Source: Actinomycetota bacterium (GTDB lineage: Bacteria; Actinomycetota; CADDZG01; JAHWKV01). From it: a DNA stretch of 64,000 nt. A program made the translations under genes and the position numbers. The stretch lies in NCBI GenBank assembly GCA_051005875.1, contig JBPCIX010000022.1:3537-67536 (forward strand). The letters run 5' to 3'. Below the pieces are notes generated by a model, which did not search any database, had not been told where the DNA came from, and saw nothing but the letters and a program-made list of their open reading frames with translations. Below are positions 12,763 through 46,229 of this stretch, one piece after another (positions within the stretch are counted from its first letter, which is position 1; each line of letters opens with the position of its first letter).

Positions 12763-13188
12763 ATGCCAAAAAAGTTTGCTTTGATTTTGCTCGTAGTTCT
12801 CGCGATGGCAGCCTGCTCAAGCTCTCCCGAGCCGGCGCCTACGACTGAACCCAAGCCGGCGGCGGTTAAACCTGACAAAAAACCTGCGGAATCATGCCCG
12901 CCGGGCACCGGACCCATCGCTATTTCCGCTACGGAAGCTACTTTTGACAAGAAATGTCTGGCTTCCAAGGCCGGTGAAAAATTCACCGTAGTTTTGAACA
13001 ACACCGATGCCTTTGGGCACAATTTTGCGATTCTCGAAAAGAGCGGCGGCAATCACTTGTTCACCGGCACGGCCTCAAACGGACCGACAACAACTACCTA
13101 TGAAATACCCTCCCTGTCAAAGGGCACCTACCTCTTCCAATGCGACTTCCATCCCTTCGTAATGCAAGGCCCCTTCATAGTCAGCTAA
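12763..13188 (+). CDS. cupredoxin (amicyanin/plastocyanin-like) lipoprotein
   Basis: The lipoprotein signal is MPKKFALILLVVLAMAACSSS. Candidate type-1 copper ligands are His in AFGHNF and C-x2-H-x3-M in FQCDFHPFVMQG. Confidence 0.75.
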   Translation: MPKKFALILLVVLAMAACSSSPEPAPTTEPKPAAVKPDKKPAESCPPGTGPIAISATEATFDKKCLASKAGEKFTVVLNNTDAFGHNFAILEKSGGNHLFTGTASNGPTTTTYEIPSLSKGTYLFQCDFHPFVMQGPFIVS

Positions 13189-13206: not shown

Positions 13207-14331
13207 TTATCTCGACCGGGCGGCCGCGGGTGACCGGCCGGTGAATGTCCAGGCTCCCGCTTTGGACTGGTACAGCCAAACAACCAGAGACTTGAGGTCG
13301 CCCTTTTCGTCGTACTCGTAGTCTTTTGAGTCGCCGAGGAAACTCCGATTAAAGCGTAAAAATTCGATAAGCTCTTTGGGCTTGGGCTCAACTTCTTCGA
13401 TCGCTTCAAGCAGCATCGAGGCACCCTCGTACGCCTCAAGGGCTAAGGGGGGAGGCTTAGAGCCAAACCTGGCGCGATAACGAGCCCGGAAATCAGCTCC
13501 GCCCCTATCGGCGGGATCCGCAATGGGCGAACTGGTGATAACTCCATCGGCGACTCCCGAGGGCTTGGCCTGCAAAATTCCGGGCGAAACAACAATGGGT
13601 CCTTTGTAGCCGGCCTTTCTTGATTCCTCTATGAACCTTGCGCCCAGGCCCCCTTCTCCCGCGAAAACCAAAATCATCGGAGGGTCAAAAGCGATAGAAC
13701 CGGCAAGGCCCTCAAGGTCGGTCTTTGGGTTGATGCGCTCGAACCGCGGGATAGGCCGCTTGGCTGTGTCGAAGGCCGATTTTAAGCCCGCGCTGAAATC
13801 GTTTCCGACCGGGGTTTCGTCATGCATAACCAGGGCCGGTCCAGCCGGGAAGGTTCGATTGGCGTAAAGCCCCAGGGCCTTGCCTTGCTGAACGGCGGGG
13901 GCCACGAGGCGGCGGAAACTTTTGGCGCCGGGAGGGGCTTCACCACCGGTCGAAGTGGTTAAGAAAGGAATTCCTGCCTTATCCAGGACCAGCGCCGCCG
14001 CCTGGGAGCCTGCATCGCTCAATTCCCCGACGACCCCGATTAGGCGTTCAGTTTTCGAAACCTGGTCGGCGCCCCTGGCAGCATCGGGCGCAGACCCGTC
14101 GATCGTCTCCGCCTTGAGGCTTACCCGGTAAGTAGAGTCGGCGTGCCGGTTGTACTCTTCGACCGCCAGCTCGGCCCCCTTTTTTCCTCCGGAAGAAGTC
14201 TTGGGCGCCGAATCGCCGAGAAACCCTAGAGCCAGGCCTTGCCTGCCTGCCGCAGGGGCAACAGGGGCGGATCCGCAGGCAGCGGACGCCAGAACCACTG
14301 CGATGGCTGCAGCCATTGTTAACCTTTTCAC
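13207..14331 (-). CDS. ABC transporter substrate-binding lipoprotein (LivK/branched-chain amino acid type)
   Basis: It has the lipoprotein signal AVVLASAACGS and a 374-aa type-I periplasmic-binding fold pattern. No permease or ATPase genes are adjacent. Confidence 0.65.
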   Translation of the reverse strand: MKRLTMAAAIAVVLASAACGSAPVAPAAGRQGLALGFLGDSAPKTSSGGKKGAELAVEEYNRHADSTYRVSLKAETIDGSAPDAARGADQVSKTERLIGVVGELSDAGSQAAALVLDKAGIPFLTTSTGGEAPPGAKSFRRLVAPAVQQGKALGLYANRTFPAGPALVMHDETPVGNDFSAGLKSAFDTAKRPIPRFERINPKTDLEGLAGSIAFDPPMILVFAGEGGLGARFIEESRKAGYKGPIVVSPGILQAKPSGVADGVITSSPIADPADRGGADFRARYRARFGSKPPPLALEAYEGASMLLEAIEEVEPKPKELIEFLRFNRSFLGDSKDYEYDEKGDLKSLVVWLYQSKAGAWTFTGRSPAAARSR

Positions 14332-14549
14332 GGTCTCAAGATATCAGGATGCGCCTTGGGCCCCGGGCAGAACTCTGCGGCAAATCCCCCAAACGGGGGG
14401 CACCTAGGCGAGGGGCGAAAATCTTCCTAAAAATATATGCCTATTGGGTAGCTCAAGGTGTACAATTGGCTAGCTAAAACCGCGTGCAGCGCTCGCCTGC
14501 AAGGTGACCGCCTAATTTGATTTCTTATATCCACAGGAGGAAATGCCCA

Positions 14550-15245
14550 ATGCCACATTCAACCAAGCTGGTGTCTAACGCCAACGCCGGACGAATTCTA
14601 CTTCTGATCGCAATGTTGGCCTCGGTTGCCGCGTTTGCGGTTAGCGCGACCGCGGCGGACACATGCCCGGTGACGGCCACGATTTTGGGAACCGACGGTG
14701 ATGACAACCTTGTCGGGACTTCCGGTGACGACTTGATCAACGGCGGCGGCGGGAACGACAGAATCGAGGGCGGCGACGGGAACGACACCATCTGCGGTGG
14801 CGCCGGGAATGACAGAATCGAGGGCGACGACGGGAACGACACCATTTTCGGCGGTGCGGGCGACGATCGTCTTGAAGGCGGTGCGGGCGACGATACCGCC
14901 GACGGTGGCACCGGGAATGACAAAATCGACGGTGGCGACGGCAATGACACGATTTTGGGCGACGCAGGCGACGACAAGCTCAAAGGTAGAAACGGCATCG
15001 ACAACATCGCCGGTGGCGACGGGAATGACAAGATCCATGGTGGAGACGGTAACGACATCCTCGCTGGCGACGCCGGGGAAGACCGGATCAAAGGTGGCGA
15101 CGGGCAAGACGTCGTTGACGGAGGAGCCGGCAACGACAGGATAAGAACCCGAGACAACGAGGTTGACAACGTTAACGGAGGCGCCGGCGACGACAAGTGT
15201 CGTGTCGACGACATCGACACGCCCGTGGCCAGCTGCGAACTCTAA
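14550..15245 (+). CDS. secreted RTX-like calcium-binding beta-roll repeat protein
   Basis: About 18 consecutive GGxGxD nonapeptides (GGGGNDRIEGGDGNDTICGGAGNDRIEGDDGNDTIFGGAGDD...). The preferred start is the ATG at 14550, 9 nt after AGGAGG, giving MPHSTKLVSNANAGRILLLIAMLASVAAFAVSATAA as a Sec signal. Confidence 0.8.
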   Translation: MPHSTKLVSNANAGRILLLIAMLASVAAFAVSATAADTCPVTATILGTDGDDNLVGTSGDDLINGGGGNDRIEGGDGNDTICGGAGNDRIEGDDGNDTIFGGAGDDRLEGGAGDDTADGGTGNDKIDGGDGNDTILGDAGDDKLKGRNGIDNIAGGDGNDKIHGGDGNDILAGDAGEDRIKGGDGQDVVDGGAGNDRIRTRDNEVDNVNGGAGDDKCRVDDIDTPVASCEL

Positions 15246-16111
15246 CCAGCGCCTTATCGTCCAAACTATGTTTGGCCATTTTTGGCGCACTGGCTATCCT
15301 TTGGGCCACGGCAGTGGCTCAAGCGGTGGACGGCCAGGCATTTGAACGAACTCCAGAATCGGGGCCTCGCGGTACCCGTATAAGCACAAAAGGCACCTGC
15401 GAAAGCGTGGACGGCAGGTCCGGCCAGACGATCGCACTATTCGTCCAAAGAACCTCAGACGCTTCAGTCATTGCGGCCGGAGAATTTGATGTTCTGTCAA
15501 ATGGGTACTGGAGCGGCAAAGTAACAATCCCCAAGATCGATTCCCTGGGCAGGCAGGTCGAGCCCGGCGATTACGTCATGCGGGCGGACTGTGAGTTTGG
15601 CGATGACTATTTCGAGGCGGAATTCACCTACGCCGACCAAATTTTTACCGTAACCCCAGGTGACATACCGGGCTGTGAGAATTCATGCGATCTAGGCCCC
15701 AGCTTTGTCGACTGCGCCAACAACGGTGCTTGCGAAGCAGGTTCCTCGGCCCCCGGAAACAACCCGGGCGCCTCGCAATCGCCAAAGCAAGCTGCGGCAA
15801 GCGTAGCGGCGAAGGCCGACGCTACGAAGACCGCCAATGGCACACCCGTCGCGAATGCGCCGGGGACGGCCGGGAGCACCGTGGCCCCACCAGACGCGGT
15901 CTTATCAGCAGGGGAACTGCCGGTAATCCAACTAGCCGGCGGAGATTCTGAGGACCCTAAAACCGACACCGCGCAAAGCCCCGCAGAGCCATCCTCGTTG
16001 GCGATCAAACAAACCGGGTCTCGCGCAAAAGCGACAGCAGCAGGCCTGGCCCTAGCAGTAACGGCCCTGCTCGCTTTTTCCCTCGTTAGAAGAGCCCGAA
16101 AAGCCGTTTAG
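15197..16111 (+). CDS. secreted protein with C-terminal TM anchor and basic tail (hypothetical)
   Basis: It has a signal-like LCLAIFGALAILWATAVAQA, a ~110-aa globular region, then an Ala/Pro/Ser-rich linker. The C-terminus is AAGLALAVTALLAFSLVRRARKAV. The start is uncertain (GTG 15197 overlaps the upstream gene by 49 nt). Confidence 0.5.
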   Translation: MSCRRHRHARGQLRTLTSALSSKLCLAIFGALAILWATAVAQAVDGQAFERTPESGPRGTRISTKGTCESVDGRSGQTIALFVQRTSDASVIAAGEFDVLSNGYWSGKVTIPKIDSLGRQVEPGDYVMRADCEFGDDYFEAEFTYADQIFTVTPGDIPGCENSCDLGPSFVDCANNGACEAGSSAPGNNPGASQSPKQAAASVAAKADATKTANGTPVANAPGTAGSTVAPPDAVLSAGELPVIQLAGGDSEDPKTDTAQSPAEPSSLAIKQTGSRAKATAAGLALAVTALLAFSLVRRARKAV

Positions 16112-16120
16112 GGCCTGACT

Positions 16121-16260
16121 TCGATTCCCAAGTATTCCGGAGTGCCGGGGGGGGGAATCGAACCCCCCCAAGTATTCCGGAGTGCCGGGGGGGGAATCGA
16201 ACCTTCCCAAGTATTCCGGAGTGCCGGGGGGGGAATCGAACCCCCCTAAGTATTCCGGAG
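16121..16260 (-). repeat. three extra tandem copies of the tRNA-Leu 3' half plus trailer (39-40 bp period)
   Basis: AAGTATTCCGGAGTGCCGG starts at 16130, 16170, 16209 and 16248. Each is followed by G8-9 AATCGAACC. Only the fourth copy continues into a complete tRNA. Confidence 0.9.
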
Positions 16261-16343
16261 TGCCGGGGGGGGGAATCGAACCCCCATGGGCTTGCACCCA
16301 ATGGTGTTTGAGACCATCGCGTCTACCGTTCCGCCACCCCGGC
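16261..16343 (-). tRNA. tRNA-Leu (anticodon CAA), long variable arm
   Basis: The reverse complement is GCCGGGGTGGCGGAACGGTAGACGCGATGGTCTCAAACACCATTGGGTGCAAGCCCATGGGGGTTCGATTCCCCCCCCCGGCA. Acceptor is GCCGGGG/CCCCGGC, anticodon stem ATGGT/ACCAT with loop CTCAAAC, and T arm GGGGG-TTCGATT-CCCCC. Confidence 0.9.
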
Positions 16344-16413
16344 CTTAGGCGAGTTTACAGGCCCAGACCTCCGCTTCGGAAGACGCAGGCCTGGTCGGGG
16401 TACAAGCAGGCGG

Positions 16414-17064
16414 CTAGGACGGGATATGGCGCGGAAAGCTCGGGTTGGTTTCTGTACAGGTTAGTTTTAGGACTCCCGGGCTTGTTTGGACTTGCGGTAT
16501 GCACCCTACTAACGGCAGCCGGAGGAATTTCAGGGGGGGCACCTTAACGGTGACCGGCAGTGAGCCGGACGTCTTAAACCTCAGGGATCCCGGGCCCGTT
16601 GCACTTATCATGCCTTTCACCCGGAAGCCGGGCCCTGCCACGGTTACTCCGCCGGCATCGAAGATGAAATTGAAGCCGCGGGGAAGGACTTTCGAGACTT
16701 CCTCCTGCCTAATAGCGACCGAAACCTCAATGCTGTCAATTGAAGAGACCACGACTTTTTGCTGCGAGAGCGAAGCGCCGCGGTCCACACGGATCCCATT
16801 AAGGACGGCCTCGACCCTATCGGCCGTAACCGGGCCGAGAGGCACCCTATCGCTTGCGATTGTCGCACGGCGGATTGTGCTGTCCGTCAGCAGGTCCAGA
16901 ACCAGCGGTTTGCTCAAGCTCACTTGGGGGTCGGTAATTAATGGCTCCCGCTCTTCGATGTAGCCGGCCATCCTTTCTTCCGCGTAAGCCCCCGCAAGCA
17001 TTTCTGCGCCTATGTAGGCGACTAATACCAAGGCAACGGAAAACAAAAGCAAGCGCTTTAGCAT
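16414..17064 (-). CDS. N-terminally membrane-anchored protein, DUF2993/LmeA-like (tentative)
   Basis: It has the N-terminal TM MLKRLLLFSVALVLVAYIGAEML followed by a beta-rich ~190-aa domain. The family assignment is from memory of the general pattern only. Confidence 0.4.
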   Translation of the reverse strand: MLKRLLLFSVALVLVAYIGAEMLAGAYAEERMAGYIEEREPLITDPQVSLSKPLVLDLLTDSTIRRATIASDRVPLGPVTADRVEAVLNGIRVDRGASLSQQKVVVSSIDSIEVSVAIRQEEVSKVLPRGFNFIFDAGGVTVAGPGFRVKGMISATGPGSLRFKTSGSLPVTVKVPPLKFLRLPLVGCIPQVQTSPGVLKLTCTETNPSFPRHIPS

Positions 17065-38187: not shown

Positions 38188-38682
38188 CTAAGCCTTAACC
38201 CGCAGATTCGCGAAAAACAAAATAGTCACACCAATCACAATGGCAGCATCCGCTAAATTAAATGTCGGCCAGAATGAAAGATAGATGAAATCAACCACTT
38301 TGCCGAGGCCAAGGCCCGGGTCCCGAAAGACTCTGTCGGCCAAATTGCCCAGCCCCCCGCCCAGCACCAATCCCAACGGAAGGGCGGGGCCCTCTCCCCG
38401 AACAAGCCATGCGCCGACCACAGCCATGATTACCAGGTTGAGTATGAAAATGACCATGCCGGCACCAGAAAAGAGCCCGAACGCGCTTCCGGAGTTTCTG
38501 ACCAGTCTGAATTGAAATACTTCGCCCACAAGGGCAATGGATCGGTTGTTATCCAGGGCCGTCAATGCCCAGGCTTTGCTTACCTGGTCCAACGCCAGCA
38601 CGAGGATCATCGTGAGCCCGGCAAAACCCAATGATCGATGCTGTTGTTGCGGCTCTACCTTCGCTCTTCGGCCTTCTTGCAC
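38188..38682 (-). CDS. lspA: lipoprotein signal peptidase (signal peptidase II)
   Basis: It has the NSGSAFG motif, VVDFI and FNLADAAI catalytic Asp regions, and four TM segments. Confidence 0.9.
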   Translation of the reverse strand: MQEGRRAKVEPQQQHRSLGFAGLTMILVLALDQVSKAWALTALDNNRSIALVGEVFQFRLVRNSGSAFGLFSGAGMVIFILNLVIMAVVGAWLVRGEGPALPLGLVLGGGLGNLADRVFRDPGLGLGKVVDFIYLSFWPTFNLADAAIVIGVTILFFANLRVKA

Positions 38683-39278
38683 TTAATGCACAGTAGAACA
38701 TGAGGGAGGGCTTTTAGCCGGTCGGCTGAAATGGGCTGACCGCAATTTTCACAAAGACCATAGGAGCCCTCGCTGATCTTTTCGAGGGCCTTATCGATCT
38801 TATCGACAAGATCGGAGATGTTGTTCGCGATCGACAGGTCCTTCTCGCGCTCAAAGGTGGCGGTGCCTGCGTCGGCATAGTCCTCGTCGAAGCCGACCTC
38901 GCCGCCGGCCTCAGTCTGTGACGGGCTAAAGGCGGCTTCCTCGATTTCCTCGAGCTGTTCGGTCAATTCGGCTCGCTGGGTGATCAGGCTCTTTTTGATC
39001 GAACTGAGAGTTTTCTTATCAAAGTTGACGCGCTTGGCGGGCCTTGACGCCTTAGTCGAAGCAGGCCCAGCCTTGGGCGTGGGCGTGGGCGTGGGCGTGG
39101 GCTTGGGCTTGGGGTTGGCCTTGGCTTTAACCGCGGGCTTGGGCTTGGGCTTAACCGAGGCCTTGCGCTTGGGCTTCACCGCTGGCTGAGCTTTCGGGCG
39201 AGTCTTCGACGCGGGGCGTACAGCCGCCTTGGGCTTGGCCTTTTTTGCGCCCTTAGATTTAGTGGTTTTTTTGACCAT
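38655..39278 (-). CDS. DksA/TraR C4 zinc-finger protein with Lys/Ala/Pro-rich N-terminal extension
   Basis: The C-terminus has a coiled coil plus CENCGQPISADRLKALPHVLLCIKCK (C-x2-C-x17-C-x2-C). The first ~85 aa are KKAKPKAAVRPASKTRPKAQPAVKPKRKASVKPKPKPAVKAKANPKPKPTPTPTPTPKA. Confidence 0.8.
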   Translation of the reverse strand: MVKKTTKSKGAKKAKPKAAVRPASKTRPKAQPAVKPKRKASVKPKPKPAVKAKANPKPKPTPTPTPTPKAGPASTKASRPAKRVNFDKKTLSSIKKSLITQRAELTEQLEEIEEAAFSPSQTEAGGEVGFDEDYADAGTATFEREKDLSIANNISDLVDKIDKALEKISEGSYGLCENCGQPISADRLKALPHVLLCIKCKKAEERR

Positions 39279-43818: not shown

Positions 43819-45105
43819 ATGGGCCGAAGGTTGCTAACCCGAATTTTATTCACCCACTTACTTATCGCGCTGGCGGCGATCGGCTTATTTGCATTATCGA
43901 TTAATGGGTTGCTCGGAAACGACCCCCGGGTACAGATCCTTGGAGTGTCGGCTGCGATGGTTGCCGTGGCTGCCACGACTGCGGTTCTAGTAGCCAGATC
44001 TTTGTCACGTCCGCTGAAGATTATGAGCGAACAGGTCGAAAGCATAGCCGGGGGCGATGAGGCCGTTCTGGTCACTGCCAGCGGCCCCCTTGAGCAGCAG
44101 GCTTTGGCCAAAGCGGTTAGCGCGATGGCCGAAAATCTTGCGATGCGTCTGCAGCAACTTGCCAGCGAAACTCGGCTTCGAGAGCAGGTGCTGGCTTCAA
44201 TGTCCGTTGGTGTTCTTCTTACCAATGCCGATGGCGACGCTATCTACTCGAATCCCGCCGCCGAGAAAATCGTTGGTCTCTCTTCGAACTTTCTTCTAAA
44301 GGAGGTAGAAAACGGCGTTTCCGAATTTACTTTCCACCACCCCGTTCGGCGAGACCTGAGAGTGACATCGGTCGCCCTTGACGATGGCAGCCGGCTGGTC
44401 TTGCTCGAGGATCTGACGGAAGTAAGACGGGTAGAGCTGATGCGCCGCGATTTTGTCGCCGACGCCTCGCACGAGCTTAAAACCCCGGTAGGGGGCATAC
44501 TGGCGGCTGCTGAAACTCTCGACGTAGCATCCCGAGAAGATCCGGGCCGAGTTCCCCAGTTCGTGGCTGCACTTTTGCACGAAGCCAAGAAATTGGCACG
44601 GTTGGTTCAAGAGCTGCTGGATCTAGCCAGGCTTGAGCGAACACCGACCGAGTCCAAGCCGATTCATCTTTCCGGCTTGATTCGCAGACAGGCCGCCGAT
44701 ATAGCAATTTTAGCGGCCGGGAAGGGCTTGAAGGTCGAGACCGACATCGCCGGTGGAATAGTCGTTAATGGCAACGCCGAGGAATTGGGTCAGGCAATAC
44801 GAAACATTCTAGAAAACGCACTCAGGTACACGAGCGAGGGAATCATTCGAGTATCGGTTTCGAGACAAGAAGGGCTCGCAGTAGTCGAAGTTGCCGACAC
44901 GGGAGCGGGTATCCCCAACAAGGATCTTGAGCGGATCTTCGAACGCTTCTACAGAGTGGACCCGGCTCGCTCGCGGGAAACAGGAGGCACCGGCCTGGGC
45001 CTGTCGATTGCCCGGCACGCAATACAGCGGCACAATGGGAAGGTCAGCGCGAAAAGCGAACTAGGCAAAGGATCAGTGTTTAAAATCACCCTACCGATCG
45101 AATGA
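43819..45105 (+). CDS. sensor histidine kinase (HisKA/HATPase_c, PhoR/SenX3-like), no adjacent response regulator
   Basis: It has two N-terminal TM segments, a HAMP-like linker, the H-box DFVADASHELKTPV, the N-box IRNILENALRYT, and G-boxes DTGAGI and GGTGLGLSIARH. Confidence 0.88.
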   Translation: MGRRLLTRILFTHLLIALAAIGLFALSINGLLGNDPRVQILGVSAAMVAVAATTAVLVARSLSRPLKIMSEQVESIAGGDEAVLVTASGPLEQQALAKAVSAMAENLAMRLQQLASETRLREQVLASMSVGVLLTNADGDAIYSNPAAEKIVGLSSNFLLKEVENGVSEFTFHHPVRRDLRVTSVALDDGSRLVLLEDLTEVRRVELMRRDFVADASHELKTPVGGILAAAETLDVASREDPGRVPQFVAALLHEAKKLARLVQELLDLARLERTPTESKPIHLSGLIRRQAADIAILAAGKGLKVETDIAGGIVVNGNAEELGQAIRNILENALRYTSEGIIRVSVSRQEGLAVVEVADTGAGIPNKDLERIFERFYRVDPARSRETGGTGLGLSIARHAIQRHNGKVSAKSELGKGSVFKITLPIE

Positions 45106-46229
45106 TTACCAACTTGGTCCCCCGCAGGGGTTGGGTAGCTCCGTTTCTGGCTTGCCATTTAGTCCTGCGTTTAGTCGTCCTGCGTTTAGTCGTCCTGGGT
45201 TTAGTCGTACTGGGTTTAGTCCTGGGCTTAGTCATTGGCCCGGCAACAATAAGCCTGGCTGCTTCTGCGGAGTCCGTTTCTAAGGATCTAGATTCCGTGG
45301 CTGCCGCTTACGGCAAATTGGAGACTCAGCTGGCCCAAACTGAGGCGCGCCAAACCAAACTTCAACAAGAGGACCAAAAGGCCAAAGCGGTTCTCTCCAG
45401 CAAGGGATCAGCGCTCCAGCAACGAGCTCGCTATATGTATAAAAATGGTGGTACCAGCTCCCTACTGGCGCGGCTGGTTACCTCGCCTAACATCTCGGTG
45501 TTTCTCAGGAAAGCTCATTATTTTTCGATTTTGGGCAGAAGCGATGCTCGGCTGGTCGAGGGCCTCACGATTAGCCAGGCAAGAGCTGATGAGATCCGAA
45601 ACGACCTCGCTTCAACCAAGGCGCGCCAAAGAAAAGTAGCGTCGGATCTCCGGTCTGAACGGGCACGGTTACAAGCAAAATACGGAGAAATCAAGCGACA
45701 GGAAGAGACCGCACGGCGGGCGGCTGAAGCGCGCCTTAAGGCGGGAAGGGTTACCAAGCCGGTGGAGCGCCGCCAGCTAGAGGCCACCGTCAAAGGAGAA
45801 ATCCCAACCAAGGTGGGGTCAGTCGGAAAATTCCCATCCTTTTCATTGCCAATTGCAGGTCCTACCGGGTTCACCGACACCTGGGGGGCCGCACGGTCGG
45901 GAGGAAGGCGGCATCAAGGCACCGATGTAATGGCCCCTTGCGGCGCCCGAGTAGTTGCGGTAACCAGCGGCTCAATCTCCAGGCTGATGACGGGCGGCGC
46001 CGGTGGGACCATGGTTTATCTAAAGGCAGGCAACGGGGACGAGTTTTTCTACGCTCATTTGCAGAGCACGGCAACAAGTCAAGGCAAAGGCGTTGCGGCG
46101 GGCGAACTCATCGGCTACAACGGCAACTCAGGCAATGCCCGAGGGGGGCCGTGCCACGTTCACTTTGAATGGCACCCCGGCGGCGGGGCCGCCGTTAACC
46201 CATACTCCTTGCTGGCCTCTGCCCGATAA
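45102..46229 (+). CDS. membrane-anchored coiled-coil M23 family metallopeptidase
   Basis: The start ATGA overlaps the kinase stop. The TM is LVLRLVVLRLVVLGLVVLGLVLGLVIG and a coiled coil follows. The M23 motifs are RRHQGTDV and GGPCHVHFEWHP. Confidence 0.85.
   Translation: MITNLVPRRGWVAPFLACHLVLRLVVLRLVVLGLVVLGLVLGLVIGPATISLAASAESVSKDLDSVAAAYGKLETQLAQTEARQTKLQQEDQKAKAVLSSKGSALQQRARYMYKNGGTSSLLARLVTSPNISVFLRKAHYFSILGRSDARLVEGLTISQARADEIRNDLASTKARQRKVASDLRSERARLQAKYGEIKRQEETARRAAEARLKAGRVTKPVERRQLEATVKGEIPTKVGSVGKFPSFSLPIAGPTGFTDTWGAARSGGRRHQGTDVMAPCGARVVAVTSGSISRLMTGGAGGTMVYLKAGNGDEFFYAHLQSTATSQGKGVAAGELIGYNGNSGNARGGPCHVHFEWHPGGGAAVNPYSLLASAR
45157..45238 (+). repeat. 12/15-nt tandem repeat (about 6 units) encoding the TM helix of the M23 peptidase
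   Basis: The units are ATTTAGTCCTGC, GTTTAGTCGTCCTGC, GTTTAGTCGTCCTGG, GTTTAGTCGTACTGG, GTTTAGTCCTGG and GCTTAGTCATTGG. Confidence 0.85.

Follow-up and report, generated by a model that had tools for sequence, protein, structure and literature searches.

A tandem array of tRNA-Leu(CAA) 3'-end segments in an uncultured Actinomycetota chromosome, probably formed by local slippage

The 64,000 nucleotides analyzed here (the window) are part of the core chromosome of an uncultured Actinomycetota, with a best TrpA identity of 60% among species representatives. Within it, a complete tRNA-Leu(CAA) gene is followed by three additional units, arranged head to tail, that are composed of the 3' part of the gene and a short piece of the DNA beyond it. 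Our analysis indicates that this array is probably a young, lineage-specific tandem duplication of a 39 to 40 bp segment. The coordinates of the array and of the surrounding genes are given in Table 1.

Table 1 The tRNA-Leu(CAA) locus and its neighborhood (positions are those of the window)
Feature	Position	Strand	Basis or remark
tRNA-Leu(CAA), complete	16261..16343	-	ARAGORN; Rfam RF00005, 58.6 bits; CCA not encoded
First trailer, CTCCGGAATACTT	16248..16260	-	Abuts tRNA; insertion-derived
Extra unit 1, AGGGGGG-TTCGATT-C8-GGCA + trailer	16209..16247	-	Sequence, repeat calls
Extra unit 2, GGGAAGG-TTCGATT-C8-GGCA + trailer	16170..16208	-	X1 contig exact over 16167-16233, 22.6x
Extra unit 3, GGGGGGG-TTCGATT-C9-GGCA + trailer	16130..16169	-	X1 contig exact over 16138-16194, 24.4x
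Post-array flank, GGGAATCGAAG	16119..16129	-	Read from sequence; shares TGGG..TCGA with CATGGGGGTTCGA
Lineage-specific insertion, ~1.85 kb	14410..16260	.	Absent from L202, L203, and L204
Gene 1, secreted RTX (GGxGxD nonapeptide) repeat protein	14550..15245	+	Pfam HemolysinCabind, E = 1.3e-47
Gene 2, orphan protein with signal peptide	15197..16111	+	Translation; no Pfam match
Periplasmic binding protein gene	13207..14331	-	Pfam Peripla_BP_6; aligns to L202, L203, and L204
Cupredoxin gene	12763-13188		Syntenic with L204

The 3' part of the tRNA consists of a T-arm, GGGGG-TTCGATT-CCCCC, followed by the acceptor 3' strand, CCCCGGC, and a final A, with a C-run of nine. Between 16247 and 16130, three units of 39 to 40 bp each repeat the T-arm and the acceptor 3' strand together with a 13-nt trailer and a G-rich junction, which amounts to the last 25 tRNA bases and 16 bases of the adjoining DNA per unit. 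The trailer is present four times (16260-16248, 16221-16209, 16182-16170, and 16142-16130), and the 19-mer CCGGCACTCCGGAATACTT also has four occurrences in the window, as compared to 0.02 expected by chance. Tandem Repeats Finder called the region 16127-16285 with a period of 39, 4.0 copies, 94% matches, and a score of 283, as well as a second solution with a period of 79 and 2.0 copies at 96%. A preliminary description of this DNA, made from its letters alone, had reported the tRNA and three copies of its 3' half at this period, with a full tRNA attached to the innermost copy only and with copies that differ in poly-C length. The analysis agrees on each point: the C-runs along the tRNA and the units are 9, 8, 8, and 9 bases long, the inter-unit junctions are also unlike one another, and both ARAGORN and Rfam found one full tRNA at the array. 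Neither program called the extra copies, which have no tRNA 5' half and thus cannot be tRNAs. The Rfam scan returned nothing beyond the tRNA, the low-scoring miRNA-like matches being read as hairpin noise. Two mechanical open reading frames, 16052-16297 (minus strand, 81 aa) and 16182-16547 (plus strand, 121 aa), cross the array and the tRNA. As had been suggested, they are almost certainly spurious, since they overlap the tRNA gene and consist of repeat-generated sequence. The array ends in GGGAATCGAAGTC, and the TAG stop of the convergent, plus-strand gene 2 is located at 16109-16111.

The age of the array was approached through relatives of the window, which were reached by a TrpA protein search and whose contigs were then compared. 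Three of these, L202, L203, and L204, have TrpA identities to the window of 85%, 82%, and 68%, respectively, and tRNA-Leu(CAA) is single copy in all of them. In L202 and L203 the gene order is nadA...trpE-trpC-trpB-trpA-LmeA followed by tRNA-Leu(CAA), and the tRNA is base-for-base identical to that of the window, including the nine C, whereas the L204 tRNA is slightly different. In the locus comparison that the preliminary description had proposed, the array was not conserved in any relative. The DNA downstream of the tRNA is different in every relative examined; the trailers in L202 and L203 read CCCAACCTGAG and CCCATCCTGAA, unlike the window, and the window trailer is not homologous to those of L202, L203, or L204. 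In all three, a Peripla_BP_6 gene lies within about 85 to 110 nt of the tRNA, and in L204 it is followed by a cupredoxin gene. No downstream copies were found at 17 tRNA-Leu genes of GTDB relatives. Likewise, a scan of the 151 tRNAs of all fetched loci found no short-period array besides that of the window, the other matches being the E. coli control and two single distant copies. The array is carried by one assembled genome only.

A contig from a glacier-forefield metagenome, X4, bears on the state of the locus before the array arose. The contig is 302 nt long (3.3x). Its identity to the window is ∼94% upstream of the tRNA and complete through the tRNA 3' half. Its minus strand then reads GGCA-CTCCGGATATATTTGGGAATCGA up to the contig end, that is, one trailer followed by the window's post-array flank. 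The trailer variant, CTCCGGATATATTT, is present once and is followed by GGGAATCGA, and this 31-mer contig ends 16 nt past the trailer. X4 appears to represent the state before duplication, with the caveat that a k-mer contig of such low depth cannot strictly exclude an array. Since X4 has the insertion edge described below but one trailer, the multiplication would be local and would have followed the insertion. In the runs X3 and X5, gene 2 and the binding-protein gene are represented by near-identical fragments at 2 to 3x, and neither run extends over the array.

In the window, the DNA next to the tRNA belongs to a lineage-specific insertion of about 1.85 kb, which starts within two bases of the tRNA 3' end. 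Its distal edge lies between about 14354 and 14410, with clear homology to the relatives back at about 14353, and there is no GC anomaly over it. The first of its two genes is preceded by an upstream region of its own and by an AGGAGG ribosome-binding site. The second encodes a protein with a C-terminus of ..KQTG, a hydrophobic stretch, and an RRARK tail, which resembles a sortase sorting signal and suggests a putative wall-anchored protein. Gene 2 is convergent with the tRNA, and its TAG is 18 bases before the last trailer (16130) and 15 before the GGGAA junction. Protein searches with the gene 2 product and with the LmeA-like protein returned no homologue besides the queries themselves. Judging from the alignments, the binding-protein gene on the far side of the insertion is the ancestral downstream neighbor of the tRNA. 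On the other side, upstream of the tRNA, are an LmeA-like gene, trpA, trpB, trpE, and nadA, and elsewhere the window carries polA, gltB, dnaE, uvrB, rpsA, and his genes. Because the trailer is unmatched in the relatives and the insertion begins at the tRNA end, the repeated trailer can be identified as the first 13 to 16 nt of inserted DNA. The comparison thus depicts the tRNA-Leu(CAA) 3' site as a variable hot spot at which the array would have arisen afterwards and locally. The breakpoint at the tRNA end, together with downstream DNA that differs in every relative, leads us to entertain that the insertion itself was brought by a tRNA-targeted element whose integrase and distal repeat have since been lost, although we regard this as a tentative suggestion that is rather less probable than not being so. 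Regardless, the origin of the insertion is a question separate from the origin of the array.

Three observations at related loci are recorded here in their own right. The trailer of tRNA-Leu(CAA) in L210 (TrpA 70%; 1523-1560) has the 11-mer GAATCGAAGTC and an initial CTC in common with the window flank at 16117-16127. The 11-mer is not in the closer relatives L202 and L203, and its sharing could be due to chance, to shared flank ancestry, or to a related insertion. In L211, two copies of an operator-like palindrome, GATGTCGCGAGACATC, follow tRNA-Leu(CAA) at 1287-1335 and may mark where a prophage or another mobile element abuts this tRNA. In a more distant lineage, L206 (6107-7156), L207, and L208 (TrpA 64%), a tyrosine recombinase gene (Phage_int_SAM_4 + Phage_integrase) is located directly after trpA, and no tRNA-Leu is present at this trpA-integrase site.

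The junctions between the units suggest how the array could have been made. An imperfect direct repeat delimits the repeated segment: CATGGGGGTTCGA marks the start, within the tRNA, and CTTGGGAATCGA the end. The two share G-run/TCGA microhomology, and the two junction types map to two breakpoints inside G-runs, as is expected of slippage at microhomology. In the model that we favor, the duplicated segment would extend from the T-stem 5' strand through the acceptor 3' strand to the first 16 nt of downstream DNA. In a first step, of 40 bp, the T-stem G-run, CATGGGGGTTCGA, would undergo slipped-strand mispairing or an unequal exchange with the similar flank, CTTGGGAATCGA, so that the stretch from GGGGTTCG to CTTGGG is duplicated and CTT-GGGGGGG-TTCG, the G7 junction, is created. 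In a second step, a 79-bp double unit from GGTTCG to CTTGGGAA would be duplicated to give CTTGGGAA-GGTTCG, the GGGAAGG junction, which would retain two bases (AA) of the original flank, with unit 2 marking the 79-bp breakpoint. A G-to-A change at 16247 and 8/9 shifts in the C-runs would have come later, and the whole process, by the comparison with X4 and the relatives, would postdate the ∼1.85-kb insertion. The two-step model accounts for the alternating G-type and AA-type junctions, for the better fit of the 79-bp period (96% versus 94%), and for the terminal GGGAA-TCGAAG. It does not by itself give the C-run pattern of 9, 8, 8, and 9, which needs extra homopolymer changes. Slipped-strand mispairing is classically associated with G/C homopolymers that surround a strong hairpin.

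The post-array flank, GGGAATCGAAG, is the reverse complement of the T-loop, TTCGATTCCC, and was considered as a functional inverted T-loop. This candidate was dropped as too weak, since the motif occurs within one mismatch downstream of 3 of 133 tRNAs and upstream of none. Equally well, the flank may be viewed as a direct quasi-repeat (TGGG..TCGA) that bounds the duplication.

The slippage model presupposes that the array is real, and the reads provide a means to weigh the contrary explanation, namely that an assembler expanded a single tRNA 3' end and trailer in a G/C-rich, self-similar region. The reads come from X1, a public sediment metagenome run that contains 94% of the locus words and was consulted as simplified 31-mer contigs. 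X1 contigs are exact across both the G7 junction and the GGGAAGG junction (Table 1), and the junction words at 24.4x and 22.6x are at the depth of the flanks (unique flanks, 21-28x; flank junction covered up to 16154 at 21.4x). Words that join a trailer to a T-arm cannot arise where the segment is present once, and the array therefore cannot be purely an expansion by the assembler. The C-run words are informative as to copy number. The depths of '8C then GGGGG' (16x) and '9C then GGGGG' (9x) add up to approximately that of the G7 junction (24x), and '8C then GGGAA' has a depth of 20x. The presence of both '8C then GGGAA' and '8C then GGGGG' requires two distinct 8C units, and thus four units in all. 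A de Bruijn graph was also rebuilt for the window and for alternative arrangements and compared with the X1 contigs. All three-unit arrangements or mixtures fail against the X1 depths, and four units fit them best. The artefact explanation does draw on real discrepancies: the window as written fails to reproduce the observed X1 contig set, the junction carrying A16247 was not found in the X1 k-mer contigs, and homopolymers of 8 to 9 G or C are prone to error. In addition, the word '9C then CTTGGGGG' is present in X1 at about 9x and absent from the window. We infer that the absence of A16247 is an expected effect of bubble removal in contig building; the A-type graph path and the shared-node path are equal in length. 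For the unit before the G7 junction (window 16147-16155 and 16187-16194), X1 contains both an 8-C form (about 16x) and a 9-C form (about 9x), which reflects either true population heterogeneity or systematic homopolymer error. More generally, copy number, order, or C-runs may differ between X1 and the window, or the population may be mixed. Taken together, the tRNA and at least two extra copies are independently supported by X1, which bears out the reported copy number in that part. For the third extra copy and the exact lengths of the C-runs the source is the assembly, and the 31-mers leave both the order of the copies and the C-runs unphased. That the array as a whole is an artefact is, in our judgment, very unlikely.

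A real array could alternatively be an att scar, left by repeated integration and excision or by tandem integration of tyrosine-integrase elements at the block from the T-loop to the 3' end of tRNA-Leu(CAA). The T-stem-to-discriminator block of a tRNA is typically common to the attP and attB of tRNA-targeting integrases, and it is this block that is repeated here. Also in keeping with a scar are the start of the lineage-specific insertion, no more than 2 nt from the tRNA end, and the different DNA that lies downstream of the tRNA in every relative examined. However, site-specific recombination leaves the element between att copies, not 39-bp head-to-tail units, and excision restores one copy. 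No combination of these events yields head-to-tail 39-bp units with 16 nt of element DNA in every one. Moreover, the distal edge of the insertion is without a tRNA-3' copy (alignment score 6 versus a shuffle mean of 6.4), no attL...attR direct repeat flanks the insertion, with no copy near the distal edge at 14354-14520, and all four matches to the 19-mer within three mismatches sit in the array. A decayed attR at the distal edge was considered and rejected, since the similarity to the tRNA 3' half there is at shuffle level. Pfam revealed no recombinase in 30 open reading frames of the window, including all of those from 9.8 to 25 kb. The earlier remark that no integrase or island is attached is accordingly right about the integrase, as far as the frames scanned, but overlooked the ∼1.85-kb two-gene insertion that adjoins the tRNA. 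An element carrying the core, which was to be sought elsewhere, did not turn up: viral contigs gave 0 matches to the core and trailer, and of at least 120 metagenome stretches that match the tRNA 3' half, the 80 examined contain neither a second match nor the trailer and are ordinary tRNA-Leu genes of many phyla with unrelated trailers. The empty site with an intact tRNA in L202, L203, and L204 holds for the insertion, not for the array, and the apparently single trailer of X4 suggests that multiplication followed insertion. Thus, where the preliminary description had left both att footprint and slippage open, the junction sequences favor slippage, and repeated integration and excision is unsupported by copies that are contiguous and have no element DNA between them. 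We consider a scar to be very unlikely.

Regardless of how the array was formed, it could have been retained as a functional RNA. The trailer is a quasi-palindrome around TCCGGA. In the plus-strand RNA, each G7-AAUCGAA-C7 stem is enclosed by base pairs between GUAUUCCGGAGUGC and the following copy, four of them G.U, and each resulting trailer-G7/C7-trailer element is a predicted 21-bp hairpin of -41.6 kcal/mol (z = -4.4). The plus-strand fold of the whole array has a predicted energy of -128 kcal/mol (z = -7.3), whereas the minus-strand fold is no better than shuffles (z = -1.8). The G.U asymmetry between the strands rests on two independent positions only. The hairpins are located directly after the gene 2 stop, and the 150-bp gap that separates the convergent units has no other strong structure. 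We infer that the main physical effect of the extra copies would be to place these very stable predicted hairpins between gene 2 and the tRNA.

The folding gives rise to the proposal that the array is a selected RNA module, either a terminator, insulator, or 3'-UTR stabilizer for gene 2 or a source of ∼40-nt T-arm hairpin RNAs of the kind discussed below for E. coli. The very strong plus-strand fold, in which two trailers contribute to each 21-bp hairpin, speaks for such a module, as do the lack of any other terminator-like structure from the gene 2 stop (16111) to the tRNA and the architectural parallel to the E. coli repeats (PMC8144298). The proposal is countered by the fact that the array is conserved in no relative, that any tandem unit with a hairpin and a palindrome folds well, and that the G.U asymmetry comes down to the two positions just mentioned. 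A selected module is thus unlikely. As to the role of the array in its present form, we lean slightly toward a neutral by-product. A factor-independent terminator or insulator without a U-tract, acting between the convergent units, is suggested by the predicted fold but is clearly the less probable reading. By analogy to the E. coli repeats, the array might instead be transcribed along with the tRNA and then processed to small RNAs, which we view as improbable. It is more speculative still that such ∼40-nt T-arm hairpin RNAs, released by cleavage behind every copied acceptor end, would titrate a tRNA-binding enzyme or toxin, or that a variable copy number would tune the termination and stability of the convergent surface-protein mRNA as a length-variable switch. 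If RNAs of this type were made, they would be mimics of tRNA 3' halves. In the metatranscriptome runs, matches were confined to the conserved 5' half of tRNA-Leu from other organisms.

As it stands, the array is of minor importance, being best explained as a recent slip of replication within a single uncultured lineage. It does illustrate that arrays made of partial tRNA 3' ends do not necessarily record an integration, which is relevant to programs that call islands from tRNA fragments. Two other tandem repeats were observed in the window, both in frame. At 39072-39187, CTTGGG is repeated 13.5 times and encodes minus-strand Pro-Lys repeats within the open reading frame 38655-39278, and at 45162-45221 a 15-nt unit is repeated four times near the start of an M23 peptidase gene (45102-46229).

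Three known systems invite comparison. One comprises attL/attR direct repeats from elements that integrate into tRNA genes, along with tandem island arrays such as the tandem integration of SGI1 (PMC2297512). Like attL/attR repeats, the array repeats the 3' part of a tRNA and adjoins DNA that is absent from relatives. Unlike arrays of that kind, it has no element DNA between the copies, no integrase, and no distal repeat, and its unit includes 16 nt of non-tRNA DNA. There is also a likeness to the intergenic slippage minisatellites (VNTRs) of bacteria, as the units are short, have microhomology at their boundaries, and vary in homopolymer length. The X1 read graph hints at population heterogeneity, and a close relative appears to be single copy. 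The difference is that the window unit includes part of a functional tRNA gene, such that selection acts on the first copy but not on the others.

The closest parallel is found in the tRNA-linked repeats (TLRs) of E. coli, which comprise 22 sequences at ten loci, with one to five per locus, most of them without known function (PMC8144298). The primary descriptions are those of Egan & Landy (1978) and Rudd (1999), taken here as summarized in that source, and an example is the 178-bp RtT units after tyrT/tyrV (PMC8144298). As in E. coli, the window units are head to tail, directly downstream of a tRNA and on the same strand, and each ends in the tRNA's own 3' end, over 18 to 19 bp in E. coli and 23 to 28 bp in the window. 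Over the roughly 19 to 20 nt from TTCGATT to the discriminator A, the 9C copy is identical to the tRNA, and the 8C copies have a one-C deletion. In contrast, the period is 39 to 40 bp in the window versus 178 bp in E. coli, the window copy takes in the whole T-arm and has no CCA, as the gene encodes none, and the window array is not conserved in related species, whereas rRNA-linked TLRs are. The repeat-finding script used here detects both the window array and the 178-bp-spaced copies at E. coli tyrT-tyrV. The Rfam RtT model (RF00391) has no match at E ≤ 10 in 15900-16500, while the positive control returned four E. coli matches of 133 to 137 bits.

A similar layout was observed on two unrelated metagenome contigs, L162 (1440-1690) and L182 (2150-2413). 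In each, the last 20 nt of a tRNA-Leu(TAA), CCA included, recur 137 or 151 nt downstream of the gene, and an inverted T-arm-like motif, GGGGATCGAACCC or GGGAATCGAAC, opens the GC-rich spacer. Neither contig has an Rfam RtT match. Both loci resemble a tRNA-linked repeat, a hint that this architecture also occurs outside enterobacteria. The window units themselves fit the structural definition of a TLR, but not one based on homology or conservation. The array can thus be regarded as a 40-bp natural analogue of the E. coli TLRs, and it is best read as a minimal example of this known architecture, made by ordinary slippage.
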